From a virus (lineage: Duplodnaviria > Heunggongvirae > Uroviricota > Caudoviricetes): a DNA stretch of 64,000 nt. A program made the translations under genes and the position numbers. The stretch lies in the IMG/VR virus record IMGVR_UViG_651053022_000004, positions 14,440 to 78,439 of that record, one strand, 5' to 3'. Shown here one piece after another: positions 39,424-63,419 of the stretch (position 1 is the stretch's first letter; each line of letters begins with the position of its first letter). The notes beneath the pieces are model-generated. The model was not told where the DNA came from, did no database searches, and saw only the letters and a program-made list of their open reading frames with translations.

Positions 39424-39544
39424 GCCTCTCCATTAGTGAGTTGTATTGATCACAACTCTACAAAGAATTCATTACTGGGTAGATGAAAATAGTTTCACTA
39501 TGAATGGAGGAGGCTATGTCGGTGGCTTCTTCATTGGAGTACAT

Positions 39545-44248: not shown

Positions 44249-44262
44249 GGATACTACTGACG

Positions 44263-45480: not shown

Positions 45481-45501
45481 CCACTCGTTGTTCAGTTACA
45501 G

Positions 45502-45524
45502 ACCGCGCCGACGCGGTTTTTTTA
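45502..45524 (+). terminator. hairpin accgcg-ccga-cgcggt plus T7 after the capsid gene
   Basis: Read directly from the sequence. Confidence 0.55.
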
Positions 45525-45556
45525 TGCCCGCACAGTGTTGCGGGCAGGAGTTTCTG

Positions 45557-45874: not shown

Positions 45875-45882
45875 GAGGAGAC

Positions 45883-46221
45883 ATGCAGGCGGGCAGATTA
45901 CGTGATCGCGTAATTATTCTGAATGTCACCACCGCCCGCTCTCCGTCAGGGCATCCGGTGGAGACGGTGACGGAGGGAGCTACCGTATGGGCAGAAGTTA
46001 AGGGTATCAGCGGGAGGGAGATAATCTCAGGCGGAGCAGAAACCGCTCAGGCTACGGTCAGAGTCTGGATGAGATTCCGGCGCGATGTGACAGCGACTTC
46101 ACGTCTGAAAGTGCTGACCGGTGCATTTAAAGGGGCCATTCTGGGTATAGAAGGTCCACCAATACCGGATGCACGCGCTACCCGGCTTGAAATACTCTGC
46201 AGCCTGAAGGGGAATGTGTGA
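45883..46221 (+). CDS. head closure / head-tail adaptor protein
   Basis: 112 aa; paralogous to 28278..28628. Confidence 0.72.
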   Translation: MQAGRLRDRVIILNVTTARSPSGHPVETVTEGATVWAEVKGISGREIISGGAETAQATVRVWMRFRRDVTATSRLKVLTGAFKGAILGIEGPPIPDARATRLEILCSLKGNV

Positions 46222-46667
46222 TGGATTTCAGTCTTGATTTTTCCGGCCTGGCGGATATTGCACGGGATTTGGAGACGCTCAGCAGGGCAGAAAACAATAA
46301 GGTTCTGCGCGATGCCACCCGTGCCGGTGCTGAAGTTATGCGGGATGCAGTTGTTGAACGTGCGCCGGAGCGAACCGGGAAACTGAAGAAAAATGTGGTT
46401 GTTCTCACTCAGCGTTCAAAGCGTCGGGGGGAAATTATCTCGGGTGTCCACATTCGCGGACGGAACCTGCGAACCGGAAACAGTGATAACAGCATGAAAG
46501 CCAGCGATCCCCGAAATGCATTTTACTGGCGCTTTGTGGAGCTGGGAACGATAAACATGCCCGCGCATCCATTCATTCGCCCGGCTTTCGATACGACAGA
46601 GGAACTGGCAGCACGGATTGCCATACAGCGAATGAATCAGGCTATTGATGAGGTCTTAAGTAAATGA
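46218..46667 (+). CDS. HK97 gp10-family tail component
   Basis: 149 aa; paralogous to 28625..29071. Confidence 0.72.
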   Translation: MMDFSLDFSGLADIARDLETLSRAENNKVLRDATRAGAEVMRDAVVERAPERTGKLKKNVVVLTQRSKRRGEIISGVHIRGRNLRTGNSDNSMKASDPRNAFYWRFVELGTINMPAHPFIRPAFDTTEELAARIAIQRMNQAIDEVLSK

Positions 46668-47008
46668 GAGAGGCCACACTGTATTCCCTGTTGTCTCAGC
46701 TGGCCGGAGGACAGGTTTATCCTTATGTGGTCCCACTGACGGAGGGAAAGCCTGCGGTATCTCCGCCGTGGCTGGTGTTTTCTGTGGTGTCTGACACGGC
46801 ATCTGATGTGCTTGATGGGCAGGCTGAATCCAGAATTACCGTGCAGATCGATGTCTGGGCGACAGTACCTGATGACGCAGATAATATTCGTGAGCAGGCG
46901 CTTGATGCGGTAAGAAAACTGGCACCCTCCGTTATTTCTAAAACGCAGGGTTATGATCCTGACTCCCGTCTGAGCAGAGCCACGCTTGAATTTCAGGTAA
47001 TAGCCTGA
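46664..47008 (+). CDS. DUF3168-like tail completion protein
   Basis: 114 aa; paralogous to 29068..29412. Confidence 0.7.
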   Translation: MREATLYSLLSQLAGGQVYPYVVPLTEGKPAVSPPWLVFSVVSDTASDVLDGQAESRITVQIDVWATVPDDADNIREQALDAVRKLAPSVISKTQGYDPDSRLSRATLEFQVIA

Positions 47009-47039
47009 GGTCATTAATGATTTTACCCACCCGCCGCTG

Positions 47040-47061
47040 GCGGGTTTTTTTATTTTCAGGA
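47040..47061 (+). terminator. hairpin cccgcc-gct-ggcggg plus T7 upstream of the major tail gene
   Basis: Read directly from the sequence; equivalent to 29442-29463. Confidence 0.5.
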
Positions 47062-47068
47062 GACGAGT

Positions 47069-47773
47069 ATGTCCTCTAATTTTGAGCGTTCGCAACTGAC
47101 GAAAATTATGATTTCGTCTGCACCGGTAACAGCAGAAACCCTGGATTCTGCCAGCTATCTTGGCCTGAGCTGTACAATCAAAGAGGTGCAGTTTACCGCA
47201 GGACAAAAGCAGGATATTGATGTCACCACGCTGTGTTCTGTTGAGCAGGAAAATATTAACGGTCTTGGTGCCGCGTCAGAGATTTCCATGTCAGGCAACT
47301 TTTATCTGAATGCTGCCCAGAACGCGTTGCGCAGTGCCTATGACAATGACACCACGTATGGCTTTAAAGTTATTTTTCCGTCAGGCAACGGATTTACCTT
47401 TATGGCAGAGGTGCGTCAGCATACCTGGTCTGCAGGAACCAATGGTGTTGTGGCTGCAACGTTTTCCTTGCGCCTGAAAGGTAAACCTGTGCTGACGACA
47501 GAGCCGCTGAAAGTGAAGGCCGATTTAAAAAGCACGCTGCGGGTTGCTTCCGGAGCGAAACTTGAAATGGCGGTTGAGGCTGCGGGTGGTGTGCCGCCTT
47601 ATTCTTATGTCTGGAAGAAAGGTGGTTCTCCTGTTTCCGGACAGACGGCGGCAACGTTCAGTAAGGCATCGGCAGTATCCGGTGATGCGGGTGCATATAC
47701 CTGCGAGATTTCTGATTCAGCAAGCCCGGTTAACAAAGTGACCTCCACTTCCTGCACTGTAACCGTCAGTTAA
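47069..47773 (+). CDS. major tail tube protein with C-terminal Ig-like domain
   Basis: 234 aa; paralogous to 29479..30195. Confidence 0.8.
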   Translation: MSSNFERSQLTKIMISSAPVTAETLDSASYLGLSCTIKEVQFTAGQKQDIDVTTLCSVEQENINGLGAASEISMSGNFYLNAAQNALRSAYDNDTTYGFKVIFPSGNGFTFMAEVRQHTWSAGTNGVVAATFSLRLKGKPVLTTEPLKVKADLKSTLRVASGAKLEMAVEAAGGVPPYSYVWKKGGSPVSGQTAATFSKASAVSGDAGAYTCEISDSASPVNKVTSTSCTVTVS

Positions 47774-47787
47774 TGAGGATGGATGTG

Positions 47788-48159
47788 ATGACTAAAAATA
47801 TCCGTAATCTGGCACTGGCAACGATGTCGGGGTTTCGCCATAAAACCGTTGATGTGCCTGAATGGGAGGGAGCAACGGTTGTGTTACGGGAACCTTCTGC
47901 AGAAGCCTGGTTGCGCTGGCAGGAGATCGTTAAAGCAAAAGATGATGAGACACCGTTATCCGTTGCGGAGCGCGCCCGCCGAAATCTGGAGGCAGATGTT
48001 GAACTGTTCATTGATGTTCTGTGTGATACCGGACTGCAACCCGTATTTTCAGAGGATGATCGTGAACAGGTGATTGCCGTGTATGGCCCGGTGCATGCGC
48101 GGCTTCTTCGGCAGTCTCTGGAACTGATCAGTGATGCCGGCGAGGTTAAAAAAAAGTAG
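47788..48159 (+). CDS. tail assembly chaperone (G-like)
   Basis: 123 aa from ATG 47788; ends at slippery A AAA AAG. Confidence 0.75.
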   Translation: MTKNIRNLALATMSGFRHKTVDVPEWEGATVVLREPSAEAWLRWQEIVKAKDDETPLSVAERARRNLEADVELFIDVLCDTGLQPVFSEDDREQVIAVYGPVHARLLRQSLELISDAGEVKKK

Positions 48160-48170
48160 CGCTTCCGGGG

Positions 48171-48461
48171 ATGCGTTTTCTGATGATGCTGGCGCTCAGG
48201 ATGGGGCGCACATTGTCAGAGTTACGCCGGGAAATGTCCGCATCAGAAATCATGATGTGGGCAGAATTTGACAGGTTCAGCCCGCTGGGGGACGAACGGG
48301 CTGATATCCGGGCTGCCCAGATTGTTTCAGCTGTTTACGGTGCGCAGGGGGTCAAAGTGCCACTGAATGATGCGCTTCTTCAGTGGGAGAAGGAGCAGAC
48401 AGAAGGCGTATCAGATCCATTTGCCGGACTGGAAAACGCGCTTTTAATAGTGTCTCAGTGA
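48171..48461 (+). CDS. tail assembly protein T-like segment, reached by -1 frameshift
   Basis: Slippery A AAA AAG at 48150-48156; the -1 frame continues into MRFLMMLALRMGRTLSELRR... Confidence 0.7.
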   Translation: MRFLMMLALRMGRTLSELRREMSASEIMMWAEFDRFSPLGDERADIRAAQIVSAVYGAQGVKVPLNDALLQWEKEQTEGVSDPFAGLENALLIVSQ

Positions 48462-48501
48462 GTCAACATAACCGCTTCGGCGGTTTTTTTTCGTCCGGAG
48501 A

Positions 48502-51500
48502 ATGAGTGTGGCGACATTACGTGAACTGATTATTAAAATCTCGGCAAATTCCCGGTCATTCCAGTCAGAGATCTCCCGGGCTTCGCGTATGGGGCAGGAT
48601 TACTACCGTACCATGCAGAACGGAGGCCGGCAGTCCGCTGCTGCATCCCGTGAAATGCGGCGTGCACTGGCAGAAGTGACGGATCAGATAAATACAGCTA
48701 AATCTTCGGCACTGAATATGGCGGGGGCATTTGCCGGGGCTTTTGCTACCGGTCATCTTATTTCTTTCGCCGATGAGTGGAATTCAGTAAATGCCCGTCT
48801 GAAGCAGGCCTCACAGTCCAGTGATGATTTTCAGGCATCACAGCGTGAATTAATGGCGATCAGCCAGAGAACGGGGACGGCGTTTTCTGATAACGCCAGC
48901 CTTTTTGCCCGTTCTGCAGCTTCCATGCGGGAGTATGGTTACAGTTCTGAGGAGGTACTGAAAGTCACCGAGGCGATCTCCACGGGCCTGAAATTATCCG
49001 GTGCCAGTACAGCAGAAGCCAGTTCGGTGATCACGCAGTTCAGTCAGGCACTGGCGCAGGGAGTGCTGCGCGGTGAAGAGTTTAACTCGGTGAATGAGAA
49101 CGGCGATCGTGTTATTCGTGCGCTGGCTGCGGGAGTGGGGGTTGCCCGTAAGGATCTGAAGGCCATGGCGGATAACGGAAAGTTGACCGCCGATAAGGTT
49201 GTTCCTGCACTGATTAGTCAGCTTGGGGCATTACGTGATGAATATGCGGCAATGCCTGATACGGTTTCATCCTCTGCAACCAAAGTTGAAAACGCCTTTA
49301 TGGCCTGGGTTGGTGGTGCGAACGAGGCAAGCGGAGTGACGAAGACGCTCTCCGGTGTGCTGAATGGTATTGCAGGCAATATTGACACTGTGGCAACCGC
49401 TGCCGGTGCTCTGGTTGCCGTCGGGGTAGCCCGATATTTTGGCAATATGGCGTCTTCTGCTGGATCTGCAACTGCCGGATTAATTACTGCAGCCAGAAAC
49501 GAAGTGGCTCTTGCGGAAGCGCAGCTCCGGGGGACACAGATAGCAACAGCCAGGGCGCGTGCGGCGGTTTATCGTGCGCAACAGGCGGTTGTTGCTGCTC
49601 GCGGTACCGAAAGGCAGGCAGCCGCAGAAGCGAAACTGGCTGCTGCCCAGGCATCACTTACCCGTAATATTGCGGCCAGAACAGCAGCACAGACAACGCT
49701 GAATACTGTCACGTCAGTGGGAAGTCGTCTGTTAAGTGGAGCACTGGGACTGGTTGGTGGGGTGCCGGGGCTTGTCATGCTGGGGGCCGCGGCCTGGTAC
49801 ACGATGTATCAGAATCAGGAGCAGGCCAGAGAATCTGCACGCCAGTATGCCGCAAAAATCGACGAAATTCGCCAGAAAACGTCGGCAATGTCGCTTCCTG
49901 AAGCGTCAGATAATGAGGAAAAGACGCGGCAGGCACTTGATGAGCAAAACAGGTTAATTGACGAGCAGAAAAGTAAGATTAAATCCTTACAGGAAAAAAT
50001 TGCTGGCTATCAGTATGTGCTGGCAAACCCGGGCTGGACAACCGATAACGGTTTTATGATTAACCACATGACGTCGGTAAAAACAGTCACAGAAGGGCTT
50101 GCAGAAGCAACAAATCAACTGGCAGTTGAACAGTCCCGTCTCACACAAATGCAGGGCAAAGCGCAATCCATTCAGGATGTGCTTGCCGGGCTGGAGGAGC
50201 GGCGGGTTGCGTTGATCCGTCAACAGGCGGCGGAACAAAACAAAGCGTATCAGTCCCTGTTGATCATGAATGGGCAGCATACCGAGTTTAATCGCCTTCT
50301 TGGGCTTGGTAATGAATTACTTCAGCAGCGACAGGGGCTGGTGAATGTACCGTTACGGCTACCACAGGCAACCCTGGATGATAAACAGCAGACCGCACTG
50401 AATAACAGCAAGCGCGAACTGGCTCTGTCCCGCCTTAAGGGGGAAGCGCGTGAGCGTGCCCGACTGGGCTATGCTGCGGATGATCTCGGCTTTGTGGGAG
50501 AGGCGTATCAGACAGCCAGACAGAATTATATCAATAACTCACTGGATGCCTGGCGAAATAACCAGGCAAATAAACCCAAAGCGCATAAAAAGACCGAAGC
50601 GGAAAAAACAGAAGATATTTATAAACGGCTGATTAAACAGCAAAAAGAACAGATAGCACTGGCAGGGCAGAATACTGAACTGGCTAAGATGAAATATCAG
50701 GTCAGTCAGGGCGAATTATCAACCCTGTCAGAAGCGCAGAAAAAAACGCTTTTGCAGAATGCAGCACTCATCGACCAGAAAAAGATTCGTGAGCAGCTTG
50801 CTGCGTATGAAAGCAGCCTGGCGGACAGTAATGCCAGTACCCGGGCGTCTAACGACGCGCAGTTACTGGGATATGGTGAAGGCTCACGGATGCGTGAACG
50901 ACTCCAGGAAATGTGGAGTATCCGGCATGAGTTTGAGCAGAAAAATAACGAGCTGCTGAGACAGTATCAGGCCGGAGAAATTGAAGAAGCCCTGTGGAAA
51001 CAGGAGAAAGAACTGAATAAAAAATATCTGGAAGAGCGTCTCAGCGATCAGCAGGATTATTATGCAAAGGCCGATGCTTTACGTAATAACTGGAATGCAG
51101 GACTCCAGGAGGGGCTGACCAACTGGGCAGACAGTGCCACCGATTATGCTTCGCAGGCGGCAGATGCTGTCGTTTCCACTATGGACGGGCTGGTATCAAA
51201 TATTTCCGATGCGCTGGCCGGAAATGTTGTGGACTGGAGAAACTGGGGGAGTTCAATTCTCCAGGAAGTTTCAAAAATTCTGATGAATGCGGCCATTGTT
51301 AACGGACTGAAGTCACTCTCCGGTGCCGGAGGGTGGCTTGGTACGGTCGGCGGATGGATTTCGGGGGCGGTGGCAAACGCAAAAGGTGGTGTTTACACAT
51401 CGGCAAATCTGAGTGCTTACAGTAACACTATTGTGGATACACCGACGTATTTTGCTTTTGCGAAAGGTGCCGGGCTGATGGGCGAGGCCGGGCCTGAAGC

Positions 51501-51735
51501 TATCATGCCACTGACACGGGCAGCGGACGGCTCTCTTGGGGTCAGAGCCATTGGCAATGTGAATAGTGGCGGGGGGGTTGTTTATTCTCCCGTGTATCAC
51601 ATCAGCATTCAGAATCAAGGGAGCAATGGCGAGATAGATGCGCGCTCAGCCAGGGGACTGGTGGATCTGATCGACAGCAGGGTTGTGTCAATTATGCAGT
51701 CATCGCGTCGGGATGGAGGATTGTACAGTGCCTGA
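48502..51735 (+). CDS. tail tape measure protein
   Basis: 1077 aa; paralogous to 30937..34179. Confidence 0.9.
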   Translation: MSVATLRELIIKISANSRSFQSEISRASRMGQDYYRTMQNGGRQSAAASREMRRALAEVTDQINTAKSSALNMAGAFAGAFATGHLISFADEWNSVNARLKQASQSSDDFQASQRELMAISQRTGTAFSDNASLFARSAASMREYGYSSEEVLKVTEAISTGLKLSGASTAEASSVITQFSQALAQGVLRGEEFNSVNENGDRVIRALAAGVGVARKDLKAMADNGKLTADKVVPALISQLGALRDEYAAMPDTVSSSATKVENAFMAWVGGANEASGVTKTLSGVLNGIAGNIDTVATAAGALVAVGVARYFGNMASSAGSATAGLITAARNEVALAEAQLRGTQIATARARAAVYRAQQAVVAARGTERQAAAEAKLAAAQASLTRNIAARTAAQTTLNTVTSVGSRLLSGALGLVGGVPGLVMLGAAAWYTMYQNQEQARESARQYAAKIDEIRQKTSAMSLPEASDNEEKTRQALDEQNRLIDEQKSKIKSLQEKIAGYQYVLANPGWTTDNGFMINHMTSVKTVTEGLAEATNQLAVEQSRLTQMQGKAQSIQDVLAGLEERRVALIRQQAAEQNKAYQSLLIMNGQHTEFNRLLGLGNELLQQRQGLVNVPLRLPQATLDDKQQTALNNSKRELALSRLKGEARERARLGYAADDLGFVGEAYQTARQNYINNSLDAWRNNQANKPKAHKKTEAEKTEDIYKRLIKQQKEQIALAGQNTELAKMKYQVSQGELSTLSEAQKKTLLQNAALIDQKKIREQLAAYESSLADSNASTRASNDAQLLGYGEGSRMRERLQEMWSIRHEFEQKNNELLRQYQAGEIEEALWKQEKELNKKYLEERLSDQQDYYAKADALRNNWNAGLQEGLTNWADSATDYASQAADAVVSTMDGLVSNISDALAGNVVDWRNWGSSILQEVSKILMNAAIVNGLKSLSGAGGWLGTVGGWISGAVANAKGGVYTSANLSAYSNTIVDTPTYFAFAKGAGLMGEAGPEAIMPLTRAADGSLGVRAIGNVNSGGGVVYSPVYHISIQNQGSNGEIDARSARGLVDLIDSRVVSIMQSSRRDGGLYSA

Positions 51736-52069
51736 GCCTGAAGTTTTTAACTGGATCCCCCGTGAGGGGATGGAGACGACACGAAAGCCATCAGTTATTA
51801 CGGTAAAGTTTGGTGACGGATATGAACAGAGACGGGCTGGTGGTCTGAATGCGGATCTGAAAACGTTTAAACCGGTATTTCGTGTCACAGATGAATATTC
51901 CCGTGCCGCGCTGGACAGTTTTTTATCCCGTCATGCCGGGATTCGTGCTTTTTTGTGGCGTCCGCCAAAACACAACAGGACTGTCCGGGTTGTCTGCAGG
52001 GAGTGGAGCATTTCGGATAATGCCATGTATACCGATTTTAACTGTACCTTTGAAGAGGTCACTCACTGA
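51728..52069 (+). CDS. minor tail protein M-like
   Basis: 113 aa from GTG 51728 overlapping the TMP stop, by analogy with 34172. Confidence 0.85.
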   Translation: MPEPEVFNWIPREGMETTRKPSVITVKFGDGYEQRRAGGLNADLKTFKPVFRVTDEYSRAALDSFLSRHAGIRAFLWRPPKHNRTVRVVCREWSISDNAMYTDFNCTFEEVTH

Positions 52070-52758
52070 TGCAGGATATACAGCAGGAAACACTCAATGA
52101 GTGCACTAAAACGGAGCAATCCGCGCTGATCGTGCTCTGGGAAATTGATCTGACAGAGGTCGGCGGAGATCGTTATTTCTTCTGTAATGAGCAGAACGAA
52201 AAAGGTGAACCGGTCACCTGGCAGGGGCGGCAGTATCAGGCATACCCCATTCAGGGGACGGGATTTGAACTGAACGGTAAGGGCAGTGCTGCCCGTCCGA
52301 CACTGACGGTCTCTAACCTGCACGGCATGGTCACCGGGATGGCGGAAGACCTGCAGAGTCTGGTCGGCGGAACGGTGGTCAGGCGTAAGGTTTACGCCCG
52401 TTTTCTGGATGCGGTGAACTTCGTCAACGGAAACAGTGACGCCGACCCGGAGCAGGAGGTGATCAGCCGCTGGCGCATCGAGCAGTGCAGCGAACTGAGT
52501 GCGGTCAGTGCTTCTTTTGTACTGTCCACGCCGACGGAAACGGATGGTGCGGTTTTTCCGGGGCGCATCATGCTGGCCAACACCTGTACCTGGACCTATC
52601 GCGGTGATGAGTGCGGTTATAGCGGTCCGGCTGTCGCGGATGAATAGACGTCCGATATCACGAAAGATAAATGCAGCAAATGCCTGAGTGGCTGTAAGTT
52701 TCGCAATAACGTCGGCAACTTTGGCGGCTACCTTTCCATCAACAAACTTTCGCAGTAA
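52069..52758 (+). pseudogene. minor tail protein L-like, frameshifted near codon 191
   Basis: Lambda-L-like to ...GYSGPAVADE then stop; compared with 15061-15090 an 11-bp stretch (tgaccagccaa) is missing; the remaining L C-terminus (TSDITKDKCSKCLSGCKFRNNVGNFGG) is in another frame. Confidence 0.8.
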
Positions 52759-52763
52759 ATCCC

Positions 52764-53482
52764 ATGACAGAGACAGAATCAGCGATTCTGGCGCACGCCC
52801 GGCGATGTGCGCCAGCGGAGTCGTGCGGCTTCGTGGTGAGAACGCCGGAGGGGGAAAGATATTTCCCCTGCGTGAATATCTCCGGTGAGCCGGAAGATTA
52901 TTTCCGGATGTCGCCGGAGGACTGGCTGCAGGCCAAAATGCAGGGTGAGATTGTGGCGCTGGTCCACAGTCACCCCGGTGGTCTGCCCTGGCTGAGTGAG
53001 GCTGACAGGCGGCTGCAGGTGCAGAGCGATTTGCCGTGGTGGCTGGTCTGCCGGGGTGAGATTCATAAATTCCGCTGTGTGCCGCATCTTACCGGGCGGT
53101 GCTTTGAGCACGGGGTGACGGACTGTTACACGCTGTTCTTGAGATGCCGGATTTTCATCGCGGGGATGACTGGTGGCGTCACGGTCAGAATCTCTATCTG
53201 GATAATCTGGAGGCCACAGGGCTGTATCAGGTGCCGTTGTCATCAGCACAACCGGGCGATGTGCTGCTGTGCTGCTTTGGTTCATCGGTGCCGAATCATG
53301 CCGCCATTTACTGCGGCGACGGCGAGCTGCTGCACCATATTCCTGAACAACTGAGCAAACGAGAGAGGTATACCGACAAATGGCAGCGACGCACACACTC
53401 CCTCTGGCGTCACCGGGCATGGCACGCATCTGCCTTTACGGGGATTTGCAACGATTTGGCCACCGCATCGACCTTCGTGTGA
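52764..53482 (+). pseudogene. tail tip protein K-like, frameshifted by a small deletion at the position where the first K copy is truncated
   Basis: N-part reads to ...DCYTLF (53137), then cttgag joins directly to atgccggattttcatcg; the C-part (53144..53482, MPDFHRGDDWW...TGICNDLATASTFV) is lambda-K-like in another frame. Confidence 0.8.
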
Positions 53483-54027
53483 AAACGGGAGCCGAAGCTA
53501 TCCGGGCGCTGGCCACGCAGCTCCCGGCGTTTCGTCAGAAACTGAATGAGGGCTGGTATCAGGTGCGCATTGCCGGGCGTGATGCAGGCGAAAACGAATT
53601 ATCTGCCCGTCTTAATGAGCCGCTGGCAAATGGTGCCGTGATCCACATCGTGCCGCGTCTGGCGGGAGCTAAAAGTGGCGGTGTGTTTCAGGTGGTGCTG
53701 GGGGCGGCGCTGATTGCGGTGGCATGGTGGAACCCTGTGGGCTGGCTGGGTGCCGCGGCTGTATCGGGCATGTATGCGGCAGGGGCCAGTATGATCCTGG
53801 GTGGTGTGGCCCAGATGCTGGCACCGAAAGCCCGGACGCCCACAGCGACCAGCACGGATAACGGTAAGCAGAACACCTATTTCTCATCACTGGATAACAT
53901 GGTTGCCCAGGGCAATGTTCTGCCTGTTCTGTACGGTGAAATGCGCGTGGGGTCTCGTGTGGTTTCTCAGGAGATCAGCACGGCAGATGAAGGGGACGGT
54001 GGTCAGGTTGTGGTGATTGGCCGCTGA
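53380..54027 (+). CDS. I: tail assembly protein I
   Basis: 215 aa MAATHTLPLASPGMARICLYGDLQRFG...; matches lambda gpI start and C-terminus. Confidence 0.85.
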   Translation: MAATHTLPLASPGMARICLYGDLQRFGHRIDLRVKTGAEAIRALATQLPAFRQKLNEGWYQVRIAGRDAGENELSARLNEPLANGAVIHIVPRLAGAKSGGVFQVVLGAALIAVAWWNPVGWLGAAAVSGMYAAGASMILGGVAQMLAPKARTPTATSTDNGKQNTYFSSLDNMVAQGNVLPVLYGEMRVGSRVVSQEISTADEGDGGQVVVIGR

Positions 54028-54087
54028 TGCAAAATATTTCATGTGAAACCGCCTCCGGGCGGTTTTGTCGTTTATGGAGCATGACGA

Positions 54088-54232
54088 ATGGGCAAAGGAA
54101 GCAGTAAGGGGCATACCCCGCGCGAAGCGAAGGACAACCTGAAATCCACGCAATTACTGAGTGTGATCGATGCCATCAGCGAAGGGCCGATTGAAGGTCC
54201 GGTGGATGGATTAAAAAGCGTGCTGCTGGCGC
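54088..54232 (+). pseudogene. J 5' fragment (first ~48 codons), left copy of a 799-bp tandem duplication
   Basis: MGKGSSKGHTPREAKDNLKSTQLLSVIDAISEGPIEGPVDGLKSVLL then runs into a second copy of the K-end/I-start sequence. Confidence 0.7.
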
Positions 54233-54826
54233 ATCTGCCTTTACGGGGATTTACAACGATTTGGCCGCCGCATCGACCTTCGTGTGAAAACGGGGGCTGA
54301 AGCCATCCGGGCGCTGGCCACACAGCTCCCGGCGTTTCGTCAGAAACTGAGCGACGGCTGGTATCAGGTACGGATTGCCGGGCGTGATACAGGTGAAACG
54401 GAATTATCAGCCCGTCTTAATGAACCGCTGGCAAATGGTGCTGTGATCCATATCGTGCCGCGTCTGGCAGGAGCCAAAAGTGGCGGTGTGTTTCAGGCTG
54501 TGCTGGGGGCGGCTGTTATGGCGGTTGCTATATGGATGCCGGGGGTAGGAATTATGGCGAGTAATCTGCTGTTTTCTCTCGGTGCCAGTATGACGCTTGG
54601 CGGTGTTGCACAGATGCTGGCCCCTAAACCCAGAACCCCCCGCACACAGACAACGGATAACGGCAAACAGAACACCTATTTTTCTTCACTGGATAATATG
54701 GTTGCCCAGGGCAATGTTCTGCCCGTTCTGTACGGTGAAATGCGCGTGGGATCACGTGTGGTATCTCAGGAGATCAGCACAGCAGATGAAGGTGATGGTG
54801 GTCAGGTTGTGGTGATTGGTCGCTGA
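54233..54826 (+). pseudogene. I, 5'-truncated second copy
   Basis: Begins with the duplicated K 3' end (YNDLAAAS...), then an I sequence lacking its first ~17 codons; diverges from the 53380 copy in the hydrophobic middle. Confidence 0.7.
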
Positions 54827-54886
54827 TGAAAAACGTTTTATGTGAAACCGCCTCCGGGCGGTTTTATCGTTTATGGAGCATGACGA

Positions 54887-57800
54887 ATGGGTAAAGGCAG
54901 CAGTAAGGGGCATACCCCGCGCGAAGCGAAGGACAACCTGAAGTCCACGCAGCTGCTGAGTGTGATCGATGCCATCAGCGAAGGGCCGGTTGAAGGTCCG
55001 GTGGATGGATTAAAAAGCGTGCTGCTGAACAGTACACCGGTGCTGGACAGTGAGGGGAATACCAACATCTCCGGTGTTACGGTGGTGTTCCGGGCAGGTG
55101 AGCAGGAGCAGACACCGCCGGAGGGATTTGAATCCTCCGGTTCCGAGACGGTGCTGGGTACGGAAGTGAAATACGACACGCCGATCACCCGCACCATCAC
55201 GTCGGCAAACATCGACCGTCTGCGCTTTACGCCGGTGCTGGACAGTGAGGGGAATACCAATATATCCGGCGTCACGGTGGTGTTCCGGGCCGGTGAGCAG
55301 GAGCAGTCACCGCCGGAGGGATTTGAATCCTCCGGCTCCGAGACGGTGCTGGGTACGGAAGTGAAATATGACACGCCGATCACCCGGACCATCACGTCGG
55401 CAAACATCGACCGTCTGCGCTTTACCTTCGGTGTACAGGCACTGGTGGAAACCACCTCAAAGGGAGACAGGAATCCGTCGGAAGTTCGCCTGCTGGTTCA
55501 GATACAGCGTAACGGTGGCTGGGTGACGGAAAAAGACATCACCATTAAGGGCAAAACCACCTCGCAGTATCTGGCCTCGGTGGTGGTGGATAACCTGCCG
55601 CCGCGCCCGTTTAATATCCGGATGCGCAGGATGACGCCGGACAGCACCACAGACCAGCTGCTGAACAAAACGCTCTGGTCGTCATACACCGAAATCATCG
55701 ATGTGAAACAGTGCTACCCGAACACGGCACTGGTTGGCGTGCAGGTGGACTCGGAGCAGTTCGGCAGCCAGCAGGTGAGTCGTAATTATCATCTTCGCGG
55801 GCGCATTCTGCAGGTGCCGTCGAACTATAACCCGCAGACGCGGCAATACAGCGGTATCTGGGACGGAACGTTAAAACCGGCATACAGCAACAACATGGCC
55901 TGGTGTCTGTGGGATATGCTGACCCATCCGCGCTACGGCATGGGAAAACGTCTTGGTGCGGCAGATGTGGATAAATGGGCGCTGTATGTCATCGGCCAGT
56001 ACTGCGACCAGTCGGTGCCGGACGGCTTTGGCGGCACGGAGCCGCGCATTACCTGTAATGCGTACCTGACCACACAGCGCAAGGCGTGGGATGTGCTCAG
56101 TGATTTCTGCTCGGCGATGCGCTGTATGCCGGTATGGAACGGGCAGACGCTGACGTTCGTGCAGGACCGACCATCAGATAAGGTGTGGACCTATAACCGC
56201 AGTAATGTGGTGATGCCGGAGCCGTCGGATAATGTGTGGACCTATAACCGCAGTAATGTGGTGATGCCGGATGATGGCGCGCCGTTCCGCTACAGCTTCA
56301 GCGCCCTGAAGGACCGCCATAATGCCGTTGAGGTGAACTGGATTGACCCGGATAACGGCTGGGAGACGGCGACAGAGCTCGTGGAGGATACGCAGGCCAT
56401 TGCCCGTTACGGCCGTAACGTCACGAAGATGGATGCCTTTGGCTGTACCAGCCGGGGCTGACCCGGATAACGGCTGGGAAACGGCAACAGAGCTTGTGGA
56501 GGACACGCAGGCCATTGCCCGTTATGGTCGTAATGTCACGAAGATGGATGCCTTTGGCTGTACCAGCCGGGGGCAGGCACACCGCGCCGGGCTGTGGCTG
56601 ATTAAAACGGAGCTGCTGGAAACGCAGACCGTGGACTTCAGCGTGGGCGGTGGTCGTGTGCTGGCGGTGAGCAGCCAGACCCGGACGCTGACGCTCGACC
56701 GTGAAATCACGCTGCCATCCTCCGGCACCACGCTGATAAGCCTGGTTGACGGAAGTGGCAATCCGGTCAGCGTGCAGGTCCAGTCCGTCACCGACGGCGT
56801 GAAGGTGAAAGTGAGCCGGGTTCCTGACGGCGTTGCAGAATACAGCGTGTGGGGGCTGAAGTTGCCGACGTTGCGCCAGCGCCTGTTCCGCTGTGTGAGT
56901 ATCCGTGAGAACGACGACGGCACGTATGCCATCACCGCCGTGCAGCATGTTCCTGACGGTGTTGCTGAATACAGCGTATGGGGGCTGAAGCTGCCGACGC
57001 TGCGCCAGCGACTGTTCCGCTGCGTGAGTATCCGTGAAAACGACGACGGCACGTATGCCATCACCGCCGTGCAGCATGTACCGGAAAAAGAAGCCATCGT
57101 GGATAACGGGGCGCACTTTGACGGCGACCAGAGCGGCACGGTGAATGGTGTCACGCCGCCAGCGGTGCAGCACCTGGCCGCAGAAGTCACTGCAGACAGC
57201 GGGGAATATCAGGTGCTGGCGCGATGGGACACACCGAAGGTGGTGAAGGGCGTGAGCTTCCTGCTCCGTCTGACCGTAACAGCGGACGACGGCAGTGAGC
57301 GGCTGGTCAGCACGGCCCGGACGACGCCGGAAAAAGAGACCATCGTGGATAACGGGGCGCACTTTGACGGCGAACAGAGTGGCACGGTGAATGGTGTCAC
57401 GCCGCCCGCGGTGCAGCACCTGACCGCAGAAGTCACCGCAGACAGCGGGGAATATCAGGTGCTGGCGCGATGGGACACACCGAAGGTGGTGAAGGGGGTG
57501 AGCTTTATGCTTCGCCTGACCGTGGCAGCGGATGACGGCAGTGAGCGGCTGGTCAGCACGGCCAGGACGACGGAAACCACATACCGCTTCAGGCAACTGG
57601 CGCTGGGGAACTACAGGCTGACAGTCCGGGCGGTAAATGCGTGGGGGCAGCAGGGGGATCCGGCGTCGGTATCGTTCCGGATTGCCGCACCGGCAGCGCC
57701 ATCGCGGATTGAGCTGACGCCGGGCTATTTTCAGATAACCGCAACGCCACATCTTGCCGTTTATGACCCGACGGTACAGTTTGAGTTCTGGTTCTCGGAA

Positions 57801-58847
57801 AAGCGGATTGCGGATATCAGGCAGGTTGAAACCGCAGCCCGCTATCTTGGCTCGGCGCTGTACTGGATAGCTGCCAGTATCAATATCAAACCGGGCCATG
57901 ATTATTATTTTATCCGCAGTGTGAATACTGTTGGCAAATCGGCATTCGTGGAGGCTGTCGGTCGGGCGAGCGATGATGCGGAAGGTTACCTGGATTTTTT
58001 CAAAGGAGAAATCGGGAAAACACATCTGGCCCAGGAGCTGTGGACGCAGATTGATAACGGTCAGCTTGCGCCGGACCTGGCTGAAATCAGGACGTCCATT
58101 ACGAATGTCAGCAATGAAATCACGCAGACCGTCAATAAAAAACTGGAAAATCAGAGTGCGGCAATCCAGCAGATACAGAAAGTTCAGGTTGATACAAATA
58201 ATAACCTGAACAGCATGTGGGCCGTGAAACTGCAGCAGATGCAGGACGGACGCCTTTATATTGCGGGTATCGGTGCCGGTATTGAGAATACGCCAGCAGG
58301 AATGCAGAGTCAGGTGCTGCTGGCGGCAGACAGGATTGCGATGATTAATCCTGCGAATGGCAACACAAAGCCGATGTTTGTTGGTCAGGGCGATCAGATA
58401 TTTATGAATGAAGTGTTCCTGAAATATCTGACGGCTCCCACCATTACCAGCGGCGGTAATCCTCCGGCATTTTCCCTGACACCGGACGGGCGGCTGACGG
58501 CGAAAAATGCCGATATCAGCGGTAACGTGAATGCGAACTCCGGGACGCTCAACAACGTCACGATTAACGAGAACTGCCGGGTTCTGGGAAAACTGTCCGC
58601 GAACCAGATTGAAGGCGATCTCGTTAAAACAGTGGGCAAAGCTTTCCCCCGTGACTCCCGGGCACCGGAGCGGTGGCCATCAGGGACCATTACCGTCAGG
58701 GTTTATGACGATCAGCCGTTTGACCGGCAAATTGTTATTCCGGCTGTGGCATTCAGTGGCGCTAAGCATGAGAGAGAGCATACTGATATTTACTCCTCAT
58801 GCCGTCTGATAGTGTTATTGATATGCCTGCCGGTCACGGTCACATGA
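54887..58847 (+). pseudogene. J: host specificity protein J, disrupted by several imperfect tandem duplications and a frameshift
   Basis: Lambda-J-like throughout; in-frame duplications of 198, 51, 129 and 246 bp and an out-of-frame 116-bp duplication (56344-56575) that creates a stop at 56459-56461; the frame resumes in ORF 56343..58847. Confidence 0.8.
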
Positions 58848-59239
58848 CACTGGAGTTTTCGGTGTCAGCATGGCTGGTAAATAACTGGTATCCCACAGCA
58901 AGTATCAGCGATTTGCTGGTTGCGTTATTGATATGCCTGCCGGTCACGGTCACATGACGCTGGAGTTTTCGGTGTCAGCATGGCTGGTAAATGGCTGGTA
59001 TCCCACAGCAAGTATCAGCGATTTGCTGGTTGGATTGTTATTCCGGCGGTGGCATTCAGCGGCGCTAAACATGAGAAAGAGCATACTGATATTTACTCCT
59101 CATGCCGTCTGATAGTGCGGAAAAACGGTGCTGAAATTTATAACCGTACCGCGCTGGATAATACGCTGATTTACAGTGGTGGTGATGAAGAAAGCCACTG
59201 CAGGCATCACGATTAGCTGAATTTTATAACCCAGATACG

Positions 59240-59263
59240 GGCACCAGAAATGGTGCCTTTTTT
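59240..59263 (+). terminator. hairpin ggcacc-agaaat-ggtgcc plus T-run after the J 3' fragments
   Basis: Read directly from the sequence; identical structure at 61110-61133. Confidence 0.55.
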
Positions 59264-59287
59264 ATTGCAGAAAAGCGAGAGGTAATT

Positions 59288-59887
59288 ATGCGTAAATTAT
59301 GTGCTGTTATTCTATCCGCAGTAGTCTGGCTGGTTGCCGCTGGTACGCCAGCGAGCGCAGCAGAGCATCAGTCCACACTAAGCGCCGGGTATCTTCAGAC
59401 CCATACTGATATGCCAGGCAGTGATGACCTGAAGGGCATTAACGTGAAATACCGTTATGAATTTACGGACACGCTGGGGCTGGTGACGTCATTCAGTTAT
59501 GCCAATGCCAAAGATGAGCAAAAAACGCATTACAGCGATACCCGCTGGCATGAAGATTCAGTGCGTAACCGCTGGTTCAGCATGATGGCGGGGCCATCTG
59601 TACGCGTGAATGAATGGTTCAGTGCTTATGCGATGGCAGGTGTGGCTTACAGCCGTGTTTCGACGTTCTCCGGGGATTATCTCCGCGTAACTGACAACAA
59701 GGGGAAAACGCACGATGTGCTGACCGGAAGTGATGACGATCGCCACAGCAACACGTCTCTGGCGTGGGGAGCTGGCGTGCAGTTTAACCCGACCGAATCC
59801 GTGGCCATTGATATTGCTTATGAAGGCTCCGGCAGTGGCGACTGGCGCACTGACGGTTTCATCGTGGGTGTCGGTTATAAGTTCTGA
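59288..59887 (+). CDS. lom: outer membrane protein Lom (Ail/Lom family)
   Basis: 199 aa; signal peptide MRKLCAVILSAVVWLVAAGTPASA; C-terminus DIAYEGSGSGDWRTDGFIVGVGYKF as in lambda Lom; RBS GAGAGG. Confidence 0.9.
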   Translation: MRKLCAVILSAVVWLVAAGTPASAAEHQSTLSAGYLQTHTDMPGSDDLKGINVKYRYEFTDTLGLVTSFSYANAKDEQKTHYSDTRWHEDSVRNRWFSMMAGPSVRVNEWFSAYAMAGVAYSRVSTFSGDYLRVTDNKGKTHDVLTGSDDDRHSNTSLAWGAGVQFNPTESVAIDIAYEGSGSGDWRTDGFIVGVGYKF

Positions 59888-59913
59888 TTAGCCAGGTAAC
59901 ACAGTGTTATGAC

Positions 59914-59941
59914 AGCCCGCCGGTTCAGGCGGGCTTTTTTG
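59914..59941 (+). terminator. hairpin agcccgcc-ggttca-ggcgggct plus T6 after lom
   Basis: Perfect 8-bp stem read directly from the sequence. Confidence 0.6.
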
Positions 59942-59974
59942 TGCACAGAAAACCCCCAGCTAGGCTGGGGGTTC

Positions 59975-61090
59975 CGCATTCGCAGTGTGAACACCGTTGG
60001 CAAATCGGCATTTGTGGAGGCTGTTGGCCAGCCGAGTGATGATGCATCCGGCTATCTGGATTTTTTCAAAGGAGAGATAGGGAAAACCCATCTGGCTCAG
60101 GAGTTGTGGACGCAGATTGATAACGGTCAGCTTGCGCCTGACCTGGCTGAAATCAGGACGTCCATTACGGATGTCAGCAATGAAATCACGCAGACCGTCA
60201 ATAAGAAACTGGAAGACCAGAGTGCAGCGATCCAGCAGATACAGAAGGTTCAGGTTGATACAAATAATAACCTGAACAGCATGTGGGCTGTGAAGCTGCA
60301 GCAGATGCAGGACGGACGCCTTTATATCGCGGGTATTGGTGCCGGTATTGAGAATACCCCTGACGGTATGCAGAGTCAGGTGCTGCTGGCGGCGGACAGG
60401 ATTGCGATGATTAATCCTGCGAATGGCAATACAAAGCCGATGTTTGTTGGGCAGGGCGATCAGATATTCATGAACGAAGTGTTCCTGAAATATCTGACGG
60501 CTCCCACCATTACTGGCAATCCCCCAACGTTTTCACTGACACCTGATGGTCGACTTTCTGCGAGAAATGCGGATATCAGCGGTAACGTGAATGCGAACTC
60601 CGGGACGCTCAATAATGTCACGATTAACCAGAACTGTCGGATTCTGGGAAAACTGTCAGCTAACCAGATTGAAGGTGATATTGTCAAAACGGTGGGAAAA
60701 GCCTTTCCGAGAAATGGCAGTTATGCCAGCGGTACAATAACGGTCACTGTGTACGATGACCAGGCTTTTGACCGTCAGATAGTCGTCCCCCCCGTTCTGT
60801 TTCGCGGTGGTAAGCATGAAAACTTCAACAGCAACAACCAACAGTCATACTGGTATTCAACCTGTAAGCTGCAGGTGCTGAAGAACGGACAGGAAATCTT
60901 TCAGCAACCCGCGACGGATGTCAGCAGGGTATTTTCATCAGTCATTGATATGCCTGCCGGACACGGCCATGTCACCCTGACTTTCAATGTTTCTTCATAT
61001 GGTGCAAATAACTGGACGCCAACGACCAGTATCAGCGACCTTCTTGTTGTCGTGATGAAGAAATCAACAGCCGGCATCAGTATCAGTTGA
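59975..61090 (+). other. orphan J C-terminal (receptor-binding) cassette without its own start or RBS
   Basis: From ~59980 the sequence is about 95% identical to J nt ~57905-58640 ([16 protein letters not shown]...[20 protein letters not shown]), then has a distinct, complete C-terminus ending ...[11 protein letters not shown]-stop; preceded by two hairpins. Confidence 0.75.
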
Positions 61091-61109
61091 ATTTTAAAAC
61101 CCAAATTCG

Positions 61110-61133
61110 GGCACCAGAAATGGTGCCTTTTTT
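61110..61133 (+). terminator. hairpin ggcacc-agaaat-ggtgcc plus T-run after the J cassette
   Basis: Same element as 59240-59263. Confidence 0.55.
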
Positions 61134-61148
61134 ATTTGTGGAGTGAAT

Positions 61149-63419
61149 ATGGCAGTACAGATTTCAGGTGTGCTGAAAGACGGTGCAGGAAAACCGATAC
61201 AGAACTGCACCATTCAGCTCAAAGCAAAACGTAACAGCACCACAGTTGTGGTGAACACGGTGGCCTCAGAAAATCCGGATGAAGCCGGACGTTACAGCAT
61301 GGATGTCACCGTGTATGAGGATTCTAAGCCGGGGACATTGAATGATTTTCTGGGCGCTGCAACAGAAGATGATGTTTGTCCGGAGGCACTGTATCGTTTT
61401 GAAAAGATGGTGGAAGAGGCGGCACGCAACGCTGAAGCCGCCTCTCAGAGCGCAGCGGCGGCAAAGAAATCCGAAACTGCAGCGGCATCATCGAAGAACG
61501 CGGCGAAAACCTCAGAAACGAATGCAGCTAACAGCGCACAGGCGGCAGCGACCTCAAAGACTGCATCGGCAAACTCCGCGACAGCAGCCAAAAAATCAGA
61601 AACCAACGCGAAAAATAGCGAGACAGCCGCAAAGACGAGCGAAACCAACGCAAAGTCCAGCCAGACGGCAGCGAAAACCAGCGAAACGAATGCCAAAGCC
61701 AGTGAAACTGCGGCAAAAAACAGCCAGGTTGCAGCAGCCCAAAGCGAGAGCGCGGCAGCCGGTTCTGCGACTTCAGCAGCTGGATCAGCAACTGCTGCGG
61801 CTAACAGCCGGAAAGCTGCGAAGACGAGTGAAACTAACGCAAAGTCCAGCCAGACGGCAGCGAAGACCAGCGAAACGAATGCCAAAGCCAGCGAAACTGC
61901 GGCGAAAAACAGTCAGGATGCAGCAGCCCAAAGCGAGAGTGCTGCAGCTGGTTCTGCAAGCGCGGCGGCTGCTTCTGCCACTGCATCAGCCAACAGTCAA
62001 AAAGCAGCAAAAACCAGTGAAACCAATGCAAAGACAAGCGAGACTGCAGCGGCGAACTCGGCGAAAGCATCCGCTGCAAGCCAGACCGCTGCAAAAGCAA
62101 GTGAAGACGCAGCCAGAGAGTATGCAAGCCAGGCAGCAGATCCGTATAAATATGTCTTACAGCCGCTGCCTGATGTGTGGATACCGTTTAACGATTCACT
62201 GGATATGATTACGGGTTTTTCGCCATCTTATAAAAAGATAGTTATTGGTGACGATGAAATAACAATGCCAGGCGACAAGATTGTTAAGTTTAAACGTGCT
62301 TCAACAGCAACGTATATTAATAAGTCCGGCCAACTCAAGCTTGCTGAAGTTGACGAACCGCGATTTGAGCGCGATGGCTTATTGATTGAAGGACAGAGGA
62401 CAAATTATCTGAGGAACTCAAATAAACCAGACTCATGGACTGTTCATTCCGCACTGAATAAAACATTTGGCACTGATAAACAGGGGTTCAATTATGCCAC
62501 GGTGACACCCACGGAAAGTATAGTGGGAACAACAGGTGGCTATACTGTGCATGGTGTGGTTGCAGCAGACAGATTCCCGCTGGCAAGTGGTGAATGTTTC
62601 ACTTTTTCGTGCCGGGTTAAAGGCGCTAAAGCACGATGCAGGTTAAGAGTTTCAGTTATTATTGGTGGAACAGATACCTTCTCTGCTGACTCTTATCTTG
62701 ATCTGGATACCCGGATCGCAACAGTAAGCGGTAATACATCCCTTATAACAGCCAAAGCTGAACAACAGGGCGAGTGGACCTACTATGAGGCCACTTATAC
62801 AGCTAATACGGACATTGATACCGTTAACTGTGCTTTTTATATGACAAATAAAATAAGTAATGAGACATTCTATGATGACTCAACATTAACCATGACGACG
62901 CCGCAAATTGAACTGGGCAATACGGCATCGTCATTTATTGTAACTACAATGCCAACAACACGCGCAAGTGATGTAGTTACTATCCCATCGCAGAATAACC
63001 TGTCAACACGGCCTTTTACGGTATTGTGCGAAGTAAGCAGGAACTGGAGTACACCGCCCAATGTTGCGCCAAGGATATTTGATGTTGGAGGGCACAGTAT
63101 TGATGATAATTATTTATCGCTGGGGTTTGTTGCAACAGGAAAGATAAGCGCCAACGTAGGAATGGTTCAGCCACAAATTGCCTCAGATGGAGAAAGGTTC
63201 ATTGTGGGTGTGAGAGCTAAATCTGATTTATCAGTAAATGCAATATGCAATGGTAATTATACAACAAACCTTAATGGTAAAATATTTGGAGTTACAGCAA
63301 CATCGTACCGGTTTGGTGGGCAGACCGCAGCAGGAACGCGTCATTTGTTTGGACACATCAGAAATTTCAGAGTCTGGTTTAAAGAATTAAATGACAGGCA
63401 AATCAAGGAGGCAGTATGA
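61149..63419 (+). CDS. stf: side tail fiber protein with Ala/Ser/Thr-rich internal repeats and a distinct C-terminal domain
   Basis: ATG 61149 after GGAG; N-terminus MAVQISGVLKDGAGKPIQNCTIQLKAKRNSTTVVVNTV is lambda Stf-like; 63-aa imperfect repeat AAKTSETNAKSSQTAAKTSETNAKASETAAKNSQ x2; C-terminal ~420 aa unlike lambda Stf. Confidence 0.85.
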   Translation: MAVQISGVLKDGAGKPIQNCTIQLKAKRNSTTVVVNTVASENPDEAGRYSMDVTVYEDSKPGTLNDFLGAATEDDVCPEALYRFEKMVEEAARNAEAASQSAAAAKKSETAAASSKNAAKTSETNAANSAQAAATSKTASANSATAAKKSETNAKNSETAAKTSETNAKSSQTAAKTSETNAKASETAAKNSQVAAAQSESAAAGSATSAAGSATAAANSRKAAKTSETNAKSSQTAAKTSETNAKASETAAKNSQDAAAQSESAAAGSASAAAASATASANSQKAAKTSETNAKTSETAAANSAKASAASQTAAKASEDAAREYASQAADPYKYVLQPLPDVWIPFNDSLDMITGFSPSYKKIVIGDDEITMPGDKIVKFKRASTATYINKSGQLKLAEVDEPRFERDGLLIEGQRTNYLRNSNKPDSWTVHSALNKTFGTDKQGFNYATVTPTESIVGTTGGYTVHGVVAADRFPLASGECFTFSCRVKGAKARCRLRVSVIIGGTDTFSADSYLDLDTRIATVSGNTSLITAKAEQQGEWTYYEATYTANTDIDTVNCAFYMTNKISNETFYDDSTLTMTTPQIELGNTASSFIVTTMPTTRASDVVTIPSQNNLSTRPFTVLCEVSRNWSTPPNVAPRIFDVGGHSIDDNYLSLGFVATGKISANVGMVQPQIASDGERFIVGVRAKSDLSVNAICNGNYTTNLNGKIFGVTATSYRFGGQTAAGTRHLFGHIRNFRVWFKELNDRQIKEAV

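Follow-up and report, generated by a model that had tools for sequence, protein, structure and literature searches.

The locus lies in the window (the whole 64-kb stretch of DNA that was analysed) and carries the tail genes K, I and J; all features are described on the plus strand. The K gene (52764 to 53354), which encodes a JAB/NlpC-P60 peptidase, is frameshifted at 53138|53139, where 25 nt of the prophage that we call X are absent; a single copy of these 25 nt was found at 15578 to 15602. K is followed by an intact I gene (I_X), the ORF at 53380 to 54027, encoding 215 aa. It is the I annotated on strain 4/0 (WP_000741570.1), and the exact protein was present in 2062 blocks of the collection searched. 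The start of J_X follows as a stub from 54088 to 54228, with a reading frame that runs on to 54300. A second I (I_Y) is located at 54229 to 54826 without its first 5 nt, and 53419 to 53423 joined to 54229 to 54826 translates to the annotated 200-aa I of a second prophage, Y. A second J start is found at 54887, and J is split into two ORFs, 54887 to 56461 and 56343 to 58847. The region codes for host-range proteins. The sequence-only reading had described an intact I, a J stub, a truncated I and a J start, and this gene-level account was correct; it overlooked the K frameshift, the chain of duplications in J and the patchwork of three prophages.

Self-BLAST of the window revealed a collinear direct repeat at K-I-J, in which 53425 to 54228 aligns with 54230 to 55027. 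Copy A (53424 to 54228, 805 nt) contains the K end, I_X, an intergenic region carrying a terminator-like hairpin, and the initial 141 nt of J_X, and corresponds to positions 20750 to 21554 of prophage X. Copy B (54229 to 55027, 799 nt) contains the K end, I_Y without its first 5 nt, the intergenic region and the initial 141 nt of J_Y, and is 100% identical to prophage Y. The difference in length is caused by indels in I. Global alignment of the two copies gave 86.9% identity over 810 columns, including 16 gap columns, which is far above chance expectation. The collinear repeat of 799 bp spanning the K end, I and the J start that had been reported from the sequence is thus real, and the alignment of the copies that was called for as a check showed no departure from collinearity; copy A, however, begins at 53424 rather than 53430 and is 805 nt long.

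The flanks of the two copies are 86–98% identical, while the patch at 53723 to 53868 inside I is only 52–74% identical, which agreed with the earlier description of near-identical flanks around a strongly diverged patch. The two peptide strings quoted for the middle of I were also exact. Both I copies match the Lambda_tail_I domain (PF06805) with scores above the gathering threshold (E = 1.9e-24 and 1.6e-24), and, judged from their sequences, both are full members of the lambda gpI family. Alleles of this family are conserved in the N-terminal Lambda_tail_I domain and in the C-terminal third, and vary in their hydrophobic, Gly/Ala-rich middle. The same is seen in both copies, and there is nothing unusual in it. 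The divergent patch was visible in all five alleles compared and is already there in the native prophages. It reflects ordinary variation among natural gpI alleles in their hydrophobic middle. The order L-K-I-J, with I between K and J, is kept in X, in Y, in a third prophage (Z) and in strain SE15.

Each copy was traced to a different prophage of E. coli ST131. Copy B is identical over 799 of 799 nt (100%) to positions 1288116 to 1288914 of strain 4/0, and the same sequence occurs in many other ST131 genomes. Copy A is 100% identical to prophage X of these same genomes. In closed ST131 genomes, prophage Y adjoins sitABCD and prophage X adjoins zinT, and the two are about 855 kb apart on opposite strands. 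Since each copy is 100% identical to its own prophage locus and the copies are only 86.9% identical to each other, they were not derived from one another. The tail genes of X, Y and Z are 85–100% alike.

The two copies leave one common sequence and come together again in another. The source sequence at 53321 to 53423, made up of the 3' portion of K and the opening 5 nt of the Y-type I, is the same in X and Y and occurs once in the window; over these last 103 nt before copy A, prophage Y and the window show no difference. Its terminal 38-mer, 53386 to 53423, equals X20712-20749 and Y19963-20000 and forms the k-1 overlap at which the two copies part. In native Y, copy B is preceded by this 38-mer, which in the window ends at 53423, directly before copy A. 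At the other end, the last 38 nt of copy A (54191 to 54228) are identical to the last 38 nt of copy B (54990 to 55027), base 39 differs, and both paths continue in common from 55028. The X path, consisting of the 38-mer, copy A and 55028 to 55230, reproduces X20712-21757 over 1046 of 1046 nt. The Y path, consisting of source sequence and copy B, reproduces Y with 1 mismatch in 875 nt and restores the 200-aa I_Y. Taken as alternatives, copies A and B give back both native loci.

The junction between the copies, 54228|54229, has 0 nt of homology. A query of 140 nt over this junction found no match of at least 80% coverage in 5,426 complete E. coli genomes, while each half alone was matched there at 100%. 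The duplication was absent from these 5,426 genomes and from 50,697 phage records, and a 3001-nt query across it always mapped to about 2031 nt. The 40-mer at the junction had no match in genome, viral and metagenome contig collections, and six chimeric or truncated ORFs specific to this assembly had no exact protein on record.

Greedy tiling indicated that essentially the whole 64 kb consists of about 35 pieces of X, Y or Z with 0–3 mismatches each, and the pieces from each prophage keep their native order. The left block, from Nu1 to K (1 to 15602), is prophage Y (Y4115-19716; 99.96% to strain 4/0). It is followed at 15603 to 17653 by lysis-region pieces of X (X3669-5753) with one Z-type stretch, and at 17654 to 39068 by a Z block from the lysis genes to mid-J (Z8655-29906; 99.98% to IPCEC48). 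The J of the Z block is cut at 39068 and abuts X6361 without homology. The block at 39069 to 53423 tiles on prophage X from HNH/terminase to K and runs on into copy A; what appear to be 34 gaps in it are skipped shared nodes. There are about 20 homology-free junctions in the window, the flanking genome is not collinear with relatives, and shared segments are missing from it. The window contains no N, at the junctions or elsewhere. Its right end coincides with the native right end of Y, beside sitD in the reference genomes.

Similar structures continue through J. The segment at 55028 to 55230 is the J continuation of prophage X (X21555-21757); a next duplication, which we also regard as false, has the final ~195 nt of this segment as its first copy. 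The second copy is the first 195 nt of a Y segment of J at 55231 to 56220 (Y20808-21797), and the shared suffix is again 38 nt. According to tiling and self-alignment, a chain of blocks from X, Y and Z, with alleles in series, occupies 56171 to 59181. Its pairs are 56171-56220/56221-56271, 56343-56457/56458-56572, 56822-56950/56951-57079, 57080-57326/57327-57572 and 58815-58922/58923-59032, and shared nodes are skipped in between, such as 72 nt at 56649|56650. Prophage Y contributes the C-terminal portion of J together with the N-terminus of stf (59977 to 61306; Y23022-24357); these are placed behind the J end and lom of X (59182 to 59976), which generates a repeat with 57912 to 58647 at an offset of 2066 nt. 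The further apparent duplications in J thus have periods of 195, 51, 115, 129, 246 and 110 nt in addition to the 2066-nt offset.

The boundaries of these pieces follow a numerical rule. In five of the seven tandem pairs, an exact suffix of precisely 38 nt is common to both copies, and the second copy opens with the first base that varies. The longest repeated suffix was exactly 38 nt at 10 of 20 hard junctions, for which the chance probability is about 5e-19, and 14 of the 27 maximal exact repeats of at least 36 nt in the window are exactly 38 nt long. The longest exact repeat in the window is 67 nt, compared with common stretches of up to 427 nt in the native prophages. Among the 14 native shared stretches of at least 68 nt, 13 are single-copy in the window and one was not found, while those of 38 nt or less mostly occur twice. 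Shared sequence longer than about 67 nt is absent from one of the two loci, which breaks K, J and the portal gene. A k=39 de Bruijn graph leaves this characteristic pattern when its bubble arms are written out in series. Some hard junctions, for example 15602, 17653 and 59976, do not show the 38-nt rule, and 136 distinct 39-mers are still repeated in the window. A pure k=39 unitig dump is excluded by these 136 repeated 39-mers and by exact repeats of up to 67 nt. The repeated 39-mers call for some repeat resolution or a pipeline of several steps, and an assembler with partial repeat resolution fits better than a pure unitig dump.

Taken together, the data suggest, with a probability of roughly 0.93, that the 799-bp tandem duplication is a false duplication that arose during genome assembly, in which the K-I-J junctions of two prophages were laid in series. 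The source strain would be an E. coli ST131 clade C-like isolate with at least three lambdoid prophages, X, Y and Z. In a short-read assembly on a de Bruijn graph, with k probably 39, long identical stretches of these prophages would have collapsed to one node each, and diverged stretches would have stayed as separate bubble arms. The pieces would then have been joined end to end by homology order, each without its leading 38-nt overlap, instead of being allotted to separate loci. Copies A and B would be the X arm and the Y arm of one bubble that covers the K end, all of I and the J start. On this account, neither the J stub nor the truncated I would exist if the two arms had not been printed in series. 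Long-read or polishing noise was considered as another technical source and rejected, as the pieces are 99.7–100% identical to the references and show no indel noise.

As for the software, the best fit appears to be a Velvet-style concatenation of nodes with subsequent ordering guided by SE15 as the reference. SE15 has a single Y-like prophage, and the blocks of the window stand in the order of their SE15 anchors; the blocks of the J region are monotonic on SE15 with one exception. The collinearity within J is consistent with this ordering, but real duplications inside the gene would be expected to show it as well. The comparison has discriminating power only over large distances, where the order Y, X/Z, X, Y carries more weight.

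The sequence-only reading had explained the locus as a tandem duplication that arose by recombination between different lambdoid phages. Such an event, with two resident lambdoid prophages recombining unequally or illegitimately or with template switching between them, would account for adjacent and collinear copies that bear the alleles of two different lambdoid phages, and it is in keeping with the fact that lambdoid prophages recombine and that I alleles are patchwise mosaics. However, homologous recombination yields in-register hybrids and no duplications, and about 20 homology-free junctions occur in 64 kb, half of them following an exact rule of 38 nt for which there is no biological sense. 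The donor prophages are also far apart and inverted in the closed genomes, the junction is without homology and was seen in none of the complete genomes, and the longer common sequence is lost at one locus at the expense of K, J and the portal gene. We consider a genuine duplication very unlikely. The claim of recombination is not supported, since each copy belongs to a different prophage, the 38-nt boundary recurs at about ten other junctions, and the native loci are restored when the copies are read as alternatives; of the proposed mosaic, the part that stands is that the alleles come from two phages, and their juxtaposition is not a recombination product. That the arrangement is physically real in some isolate, as a composite degenerate prophage formed by serial illegitimate recombination or template switching among three lambdoid prophages, with allele pairs in tandem throughout K-I-J, is hardly credible. 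Programmed variation, in which tandem alternative K-I-J cassettes switch the tail tip like invertible tail-fibre segments, finds a precedent in the invertase-driven tail-fibre switching of ST131 prophages (PMC4134206) and would suit the host-range function of the encoded proteins. The copies are direct and not inverted repeats, though, the junction sequences have no common crossover-site motif, and no invertase was seen among the ORF lists and reference annotations of the region. The frames of K, J and the I of copy B are destroyed, there are no in-frame alternative joins, and each cassette is simply the resident allele of another prophage. Invertible or cassette switching is effectively refuted.

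A further explanation keeps the artefact but changes its origin, namely that the window is another non-biological construct such as a pangenome or sequence graph built from several prophages and then linearised, or a concatenate of sequences deduplicated by k-mer. Shared nodes that appear once, variant arms in series and trimmed leading k-1 overlaps would be produced by any serialised compacted de Bruijn graph, and no source record matching the window was found. On the other hand, the persistence of repeated 39-mers shows that it is not a strict spectrum-preserving string, and all pieces fit one strain background, the prophage set of ST131 clade C. The SE15 anchor order and the end at the native right end of Y by sitD match a pseudomolecule of the NA114 type. 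This origin is unlikely, and it has the same consequence that the duplication is not real.

Under the preferred reading of an assembly artefact, there is no new duplication, recombinant I or truncated J in nature; two known ST131 prophages simply carry their ordinary K-I-J loci. The value of the finding is that of a quality flag, as the 64-kb window is a serialised mixture of three prophages and probably comes from a reference-ordered short-read pseudomolecule. The artefact extends to the other apparent duplications, deletions and frameshifts, which affect J, K, the lysis region and the portal gene, and other findings on the window that are based on gene order, repeats, truncations or frameshifts are to be discounted. 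The 38-nt rule can be reused as a simple test for such artefacts, whose copies agree exactly over their last k-1 nt, with the second copy opening at the first base that varies.

Forde et al. (2014, PMC4134206) reported that the genome of the ST131 strain NA114 was misassembled; 54-bp reads were assembled with Velvet, and Mauve was used to order the contigs on SE15, after which they were concatenated. NA114 and the window agree in strain background and prophage set (ST131 clade C). From the NA114 recipe one expects k to be below 54 and the contigs of several prophages to be arranged along the single lambda-like prophage of SE15, as found here. The published NA114 pseudomolecule (CP002797) may be the source of the window, a suggestion that draws on circumstantial agreement in strain background, k below 54 and SE15-anchored order. 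Their paper stresses a junk region of ~160 kb upstream of dnaJ, whereas the window ends at the right end of Y by sitD.

False "heterotype" duplications have been documented in assemblies (Kelley & Salzberg 2010, PMC2864568; Ko et al. 2022, PMC9516828). In these, two diverged versions lie side by side on one scaffold and mimic a recent tandem or segmental duplication; the copies contain version-specific k-mers and the surrounding identical sequence is collapsed, and the window is alike in all these respects. The versions in those reports are the two haplotypes of a diploid, whereas here they are paralogous prophage alleles in a haploid bacterium, and no N-run gap separates the copies of the window. 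The draft scaffold KK736514.1 (GCA_000692795.1, L007) consists at this place of a Y contig, 235 N, an X contig (L'-K-I-J'), 100 N and another Y contig. It differs from the window in that its junctions are marked by Ns, its period is ~1840 nt as against 799–805 nt, and its contigs overlap more. An X contig between two Y contigs at the same place nevertheless gives K-I-J' and then K'-I-J, as in the window.

The interval 53424-55027 of the window consists of two collinear and directly abutting copies, copy A (53424-54228, 805 nt) and copy B (54229-55027, 799 nt), each spanning the end of K, I and the start of J. Global alignment indicated 86.9% identity between them, with 86-98% in the flanks and only 52-74% in a patch at 53723-53868, where the indels are located. 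The repeat is confirmed as a sequence feature, and this alignment bore out the sequence-only reading of collinear adjacent copies with a sharp divergence inside I. The peptides quoted there for the divergent middle of I were exact, while the start of copy A had been placed at 53430, 6 nt too late, because of the indels in the patch. Its account of the genes also agreed with the ORFs, in which I is intact at 53380-54027 (215 aa), a J stub follows from 54088, the second I, within copy B (to 54826), lacks its first 5 nt, and J starts again at 54887. The proposal that the alleles come from two different lambdoid phages was right, but recombination leading to a 799-bp tandem duplication was not; we put the probability that this duplication is non-biological, and not a real feature of a genome, at about 0.97.

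The pieces could be traced to three prophages of E. coli ST131. Window 39066-54228 was 99.7% identical to prophage X, which adjoins zinT in ST131 genomes, and copy B showed 100% identity across 799/799 nt to prophage Y, which adjoins sitABCD in genomes that also carry X. In strain 4/0, X and Y lie on opposite strands with about 855 kb between them. The third prophage, Z, accounts for window 17654-39068 at 99.98% identity. By greedy tiling, essentially all 64 kb resolved into some 35 segments, each assigned to X, Y or Z with 0-3 mismatches, and the order of the segments was kept within every prophage; therefore, three homologous sequences are interleaved collinearly. A Y block (1-15602) is followed by lysis pieces of X (15603-17653), a Z block (17654-39068), an X block (39069-54228) and, from 54229 on, interleaved X/Y/Z as far as 64000, where Y has its native right end. 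The DNA of copy B had matches of at least 99% in 496 records, and the X allele of I occurs as an exact protein in 2062 blocks of the protein collection.

Both I copies encode ordinary gpI (PF06805, E ~1e-24). In an alignment of five independent gpI alleles (X, Y, Z, strain TF5 and SE15), the N-terminal domain and the C-terminal third were conserved, and the hydrophobic Gly/Ala-rich middle varied in sequence and length in all five, with the short motifs TPTATS and TPRTQT recurring in varying combinations. The I patch is natural allelic, mosaic variation already present in prophages X and Y, and it is uninformative on any duplication event.

The copies have the structure of a de Bruijn-graph bubble at k = 39, in which a source node (the shared sequence ending at 53423) opens into two arms, copy A from X and copy B from Y, and one sink (the 38-mer closing both copies). 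The arms stand in series, every node without its leading k-1 overlap. Velvet keeps nodes without their first k-1 bases, from which such trimmed overlaps would follow. We regard an assembly artefact as the very probable specific reading of copies A and B, and a k of 39 as probable. The source plus copy A plus 55028-55230 reproduced X20712-21757 over 1046/1046 nt, the source plus copy B reproduced Y19963-20837 with one mismatch, and translation of 53419-53423 joined to 54229-54826 gave the 200-aa I protein annotated for prophage Y. The 38-mer preceding copy B in native Y (Y19963-20000) is found at 53386-53423, immediately before copy A, and one and the same 38-mer closes both copies (54191-54228 and 54990-55027). 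Several short apparent deletions, among them 9 nt at 52646, 25 nt at 53138 and 72 nt at 56649, correspond to shared nodes that are present once at another place in the window.

This length recurred throughout the window, which contains about 20 'hard' junctions, at which the overlap is 0-3 nt and the sequence jumps within a reference or from one to another. In five of the seven tandem pairs, the copies agree exactly over their last 38 nt and no further, and the second copy starts at the first base differing between the alleles. The longest suffix recurring elsewhere in the window was exactly 38 nt at 10/20 hard junctions (chance of at least this number ~5e-19, assuming 7% divergence) and 40 and 41 nt at two further ones; a few junctions do not follow the 38-nt rule. 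Among maximal exact repeats of at least 36 nt, 14/27 were exactly 38 nt and the longest did not exceed 67 nt, whereas the native prophages have common stretches of up to 427 nt. Native shared stretches of at least 68 nt were single in the window in 13 of 14 cases (one was not found), and those of 38 nt or less mostly occurred twice. Because 136 distinct 39-mers are still repeated in the window, the assembly must be assumed to have involved a degree of repeat resolution or a pipeline of several steps.

The 799-805-nt repeat is the first in a chain of local 'duplications' running through J (periods of 195, 51, 115, 129, 246 and 110 nt and a 2066-nt offset, each 90-97% identical), and like repeats were found in the lysis region (16.7-19.5 kb) and the portal gene (~27.2 kb). 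J is broken into ORFs 54887-56461 and 56343-58847, K carries a frameshift, and three lambdoid head-tail modules stand head to tail with the early regions absent between them.

In the lysis region (15603-19512), the repeats with offsets of 904, 1213 and 1859 nt represent holin, YdfR and lysozyme alleles of X and Z in series. The Z portal gene (ORFs 25521-27197 and 27049-27945) is interrupted by 227 nt at 27149-27375 in place of 64 reference nt; this insert is an ~89% allele of the adjacent sequence, and TRF calls a 90-nt 'tandem repeat' there. This disruption resembles the other allele-in-series artefacts, and a fourth related prophage may be involved. The K of the first module is severed at 15602 and meets, with an overlap of 1 nt, the part of X on the IraM side. 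At 39068|39069, J of prophage Z ends at 730 aa and is fused without homology to the intergenic region between iss and HNH in X, and the final 38 nt before this junction occur again at 57702-57739. Relative to strain 4/0, the K alleles are exchanged: the end of the 'Y' block is X-type (15495-15602), the 'X' block holds a Y-type stretch (53057-53138), and both switches fall within 86-nt exact overlaps. This swap reflects either gene conversion that occurred naturally in the source strain or a change of copies at a shared node during the graph walk. The tandem repeats of 42 nt and 189 nt in the N-terminal region of stf (61580-62051), 72-83% identical, match the native prophages and look like ordinary Ala/Lys/Thr/Ser-rich fibre repeats, not an artefact.

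A genuine biological tandem duplication fails on every testable point, as neither copy is the closest relative of the other, the novel junction 54228|54229 is without support and the flanks of the repeat are not intact. A 140-nt query centred on this junction reached at least 80% coverage in 0/5,426 complete E. coli genomes, while its halves singly matched at 100%; the duplication was found in none of the complete genomes or phage records searched. The three marks of an artefact that are fully testable from the nucleotides alone were all present, namely restored native loci, boundaries locked to the k-mer length and collapsed shared sequence; a fourth testable mark, N gaps between the copies, was absent from the window. 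All structural oddities of the window are thereby suspect, and this warning is the main use of the result; other findings in the window based on gene order, truncation or repeats are likely artefacts.

Forde et al. (2014, PMC4134206) reported that the 'complete' NA114 genome (an ST131 strain) had been built from Illumina reads of 54 bp by Velvet assembly, Mauve ordering of contigs on SE15 and concatenation, and judged its prophage differences 'not biologically relevant'. A k of 39 is compatible with such reads. SE15 has only one Y-like prophage, between icd and sitABCD, and the window blocks stand in the order of their best SE15 anchors with one exception. We lean towards NA114 as the source of the window sequence; exact-protein look-ups of six assembly-specific ORF products gave no match. 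The J of the SE15 prophage is split by the IS21-family ISEc12 (SE15 record L011, 7016-13000 = SE15 1177015-1182999), which also divides lom of prophage Z in IPCEC48 (record L005, 31265-34450).

The public draft scaffold KK736514.1 (GCA_000692795.1) has the same construction as the window, with the gaps marked as such: a first Y contig is followed by 235 N, then by an X contig with L'-K-I-J' and, after a further 100 N, by another Y contig. Its gaps at 8596-8830 and 11547-11646 flank the X-prophage contig set between the two Y-prophage contigs, and the resulting false K-I-J'/K'-I-J duplication was annotated by gene callers as separate genes. Of known kinds, copies A and B come closest to the false 'heterotype' duplications described from eukaryotic assemblies, where a single region is represented by two diverged versions set side by side (PMC2864568; PMC9516828); unlike that case, the versions here are paralogous prophage alleles of a haploid genome.
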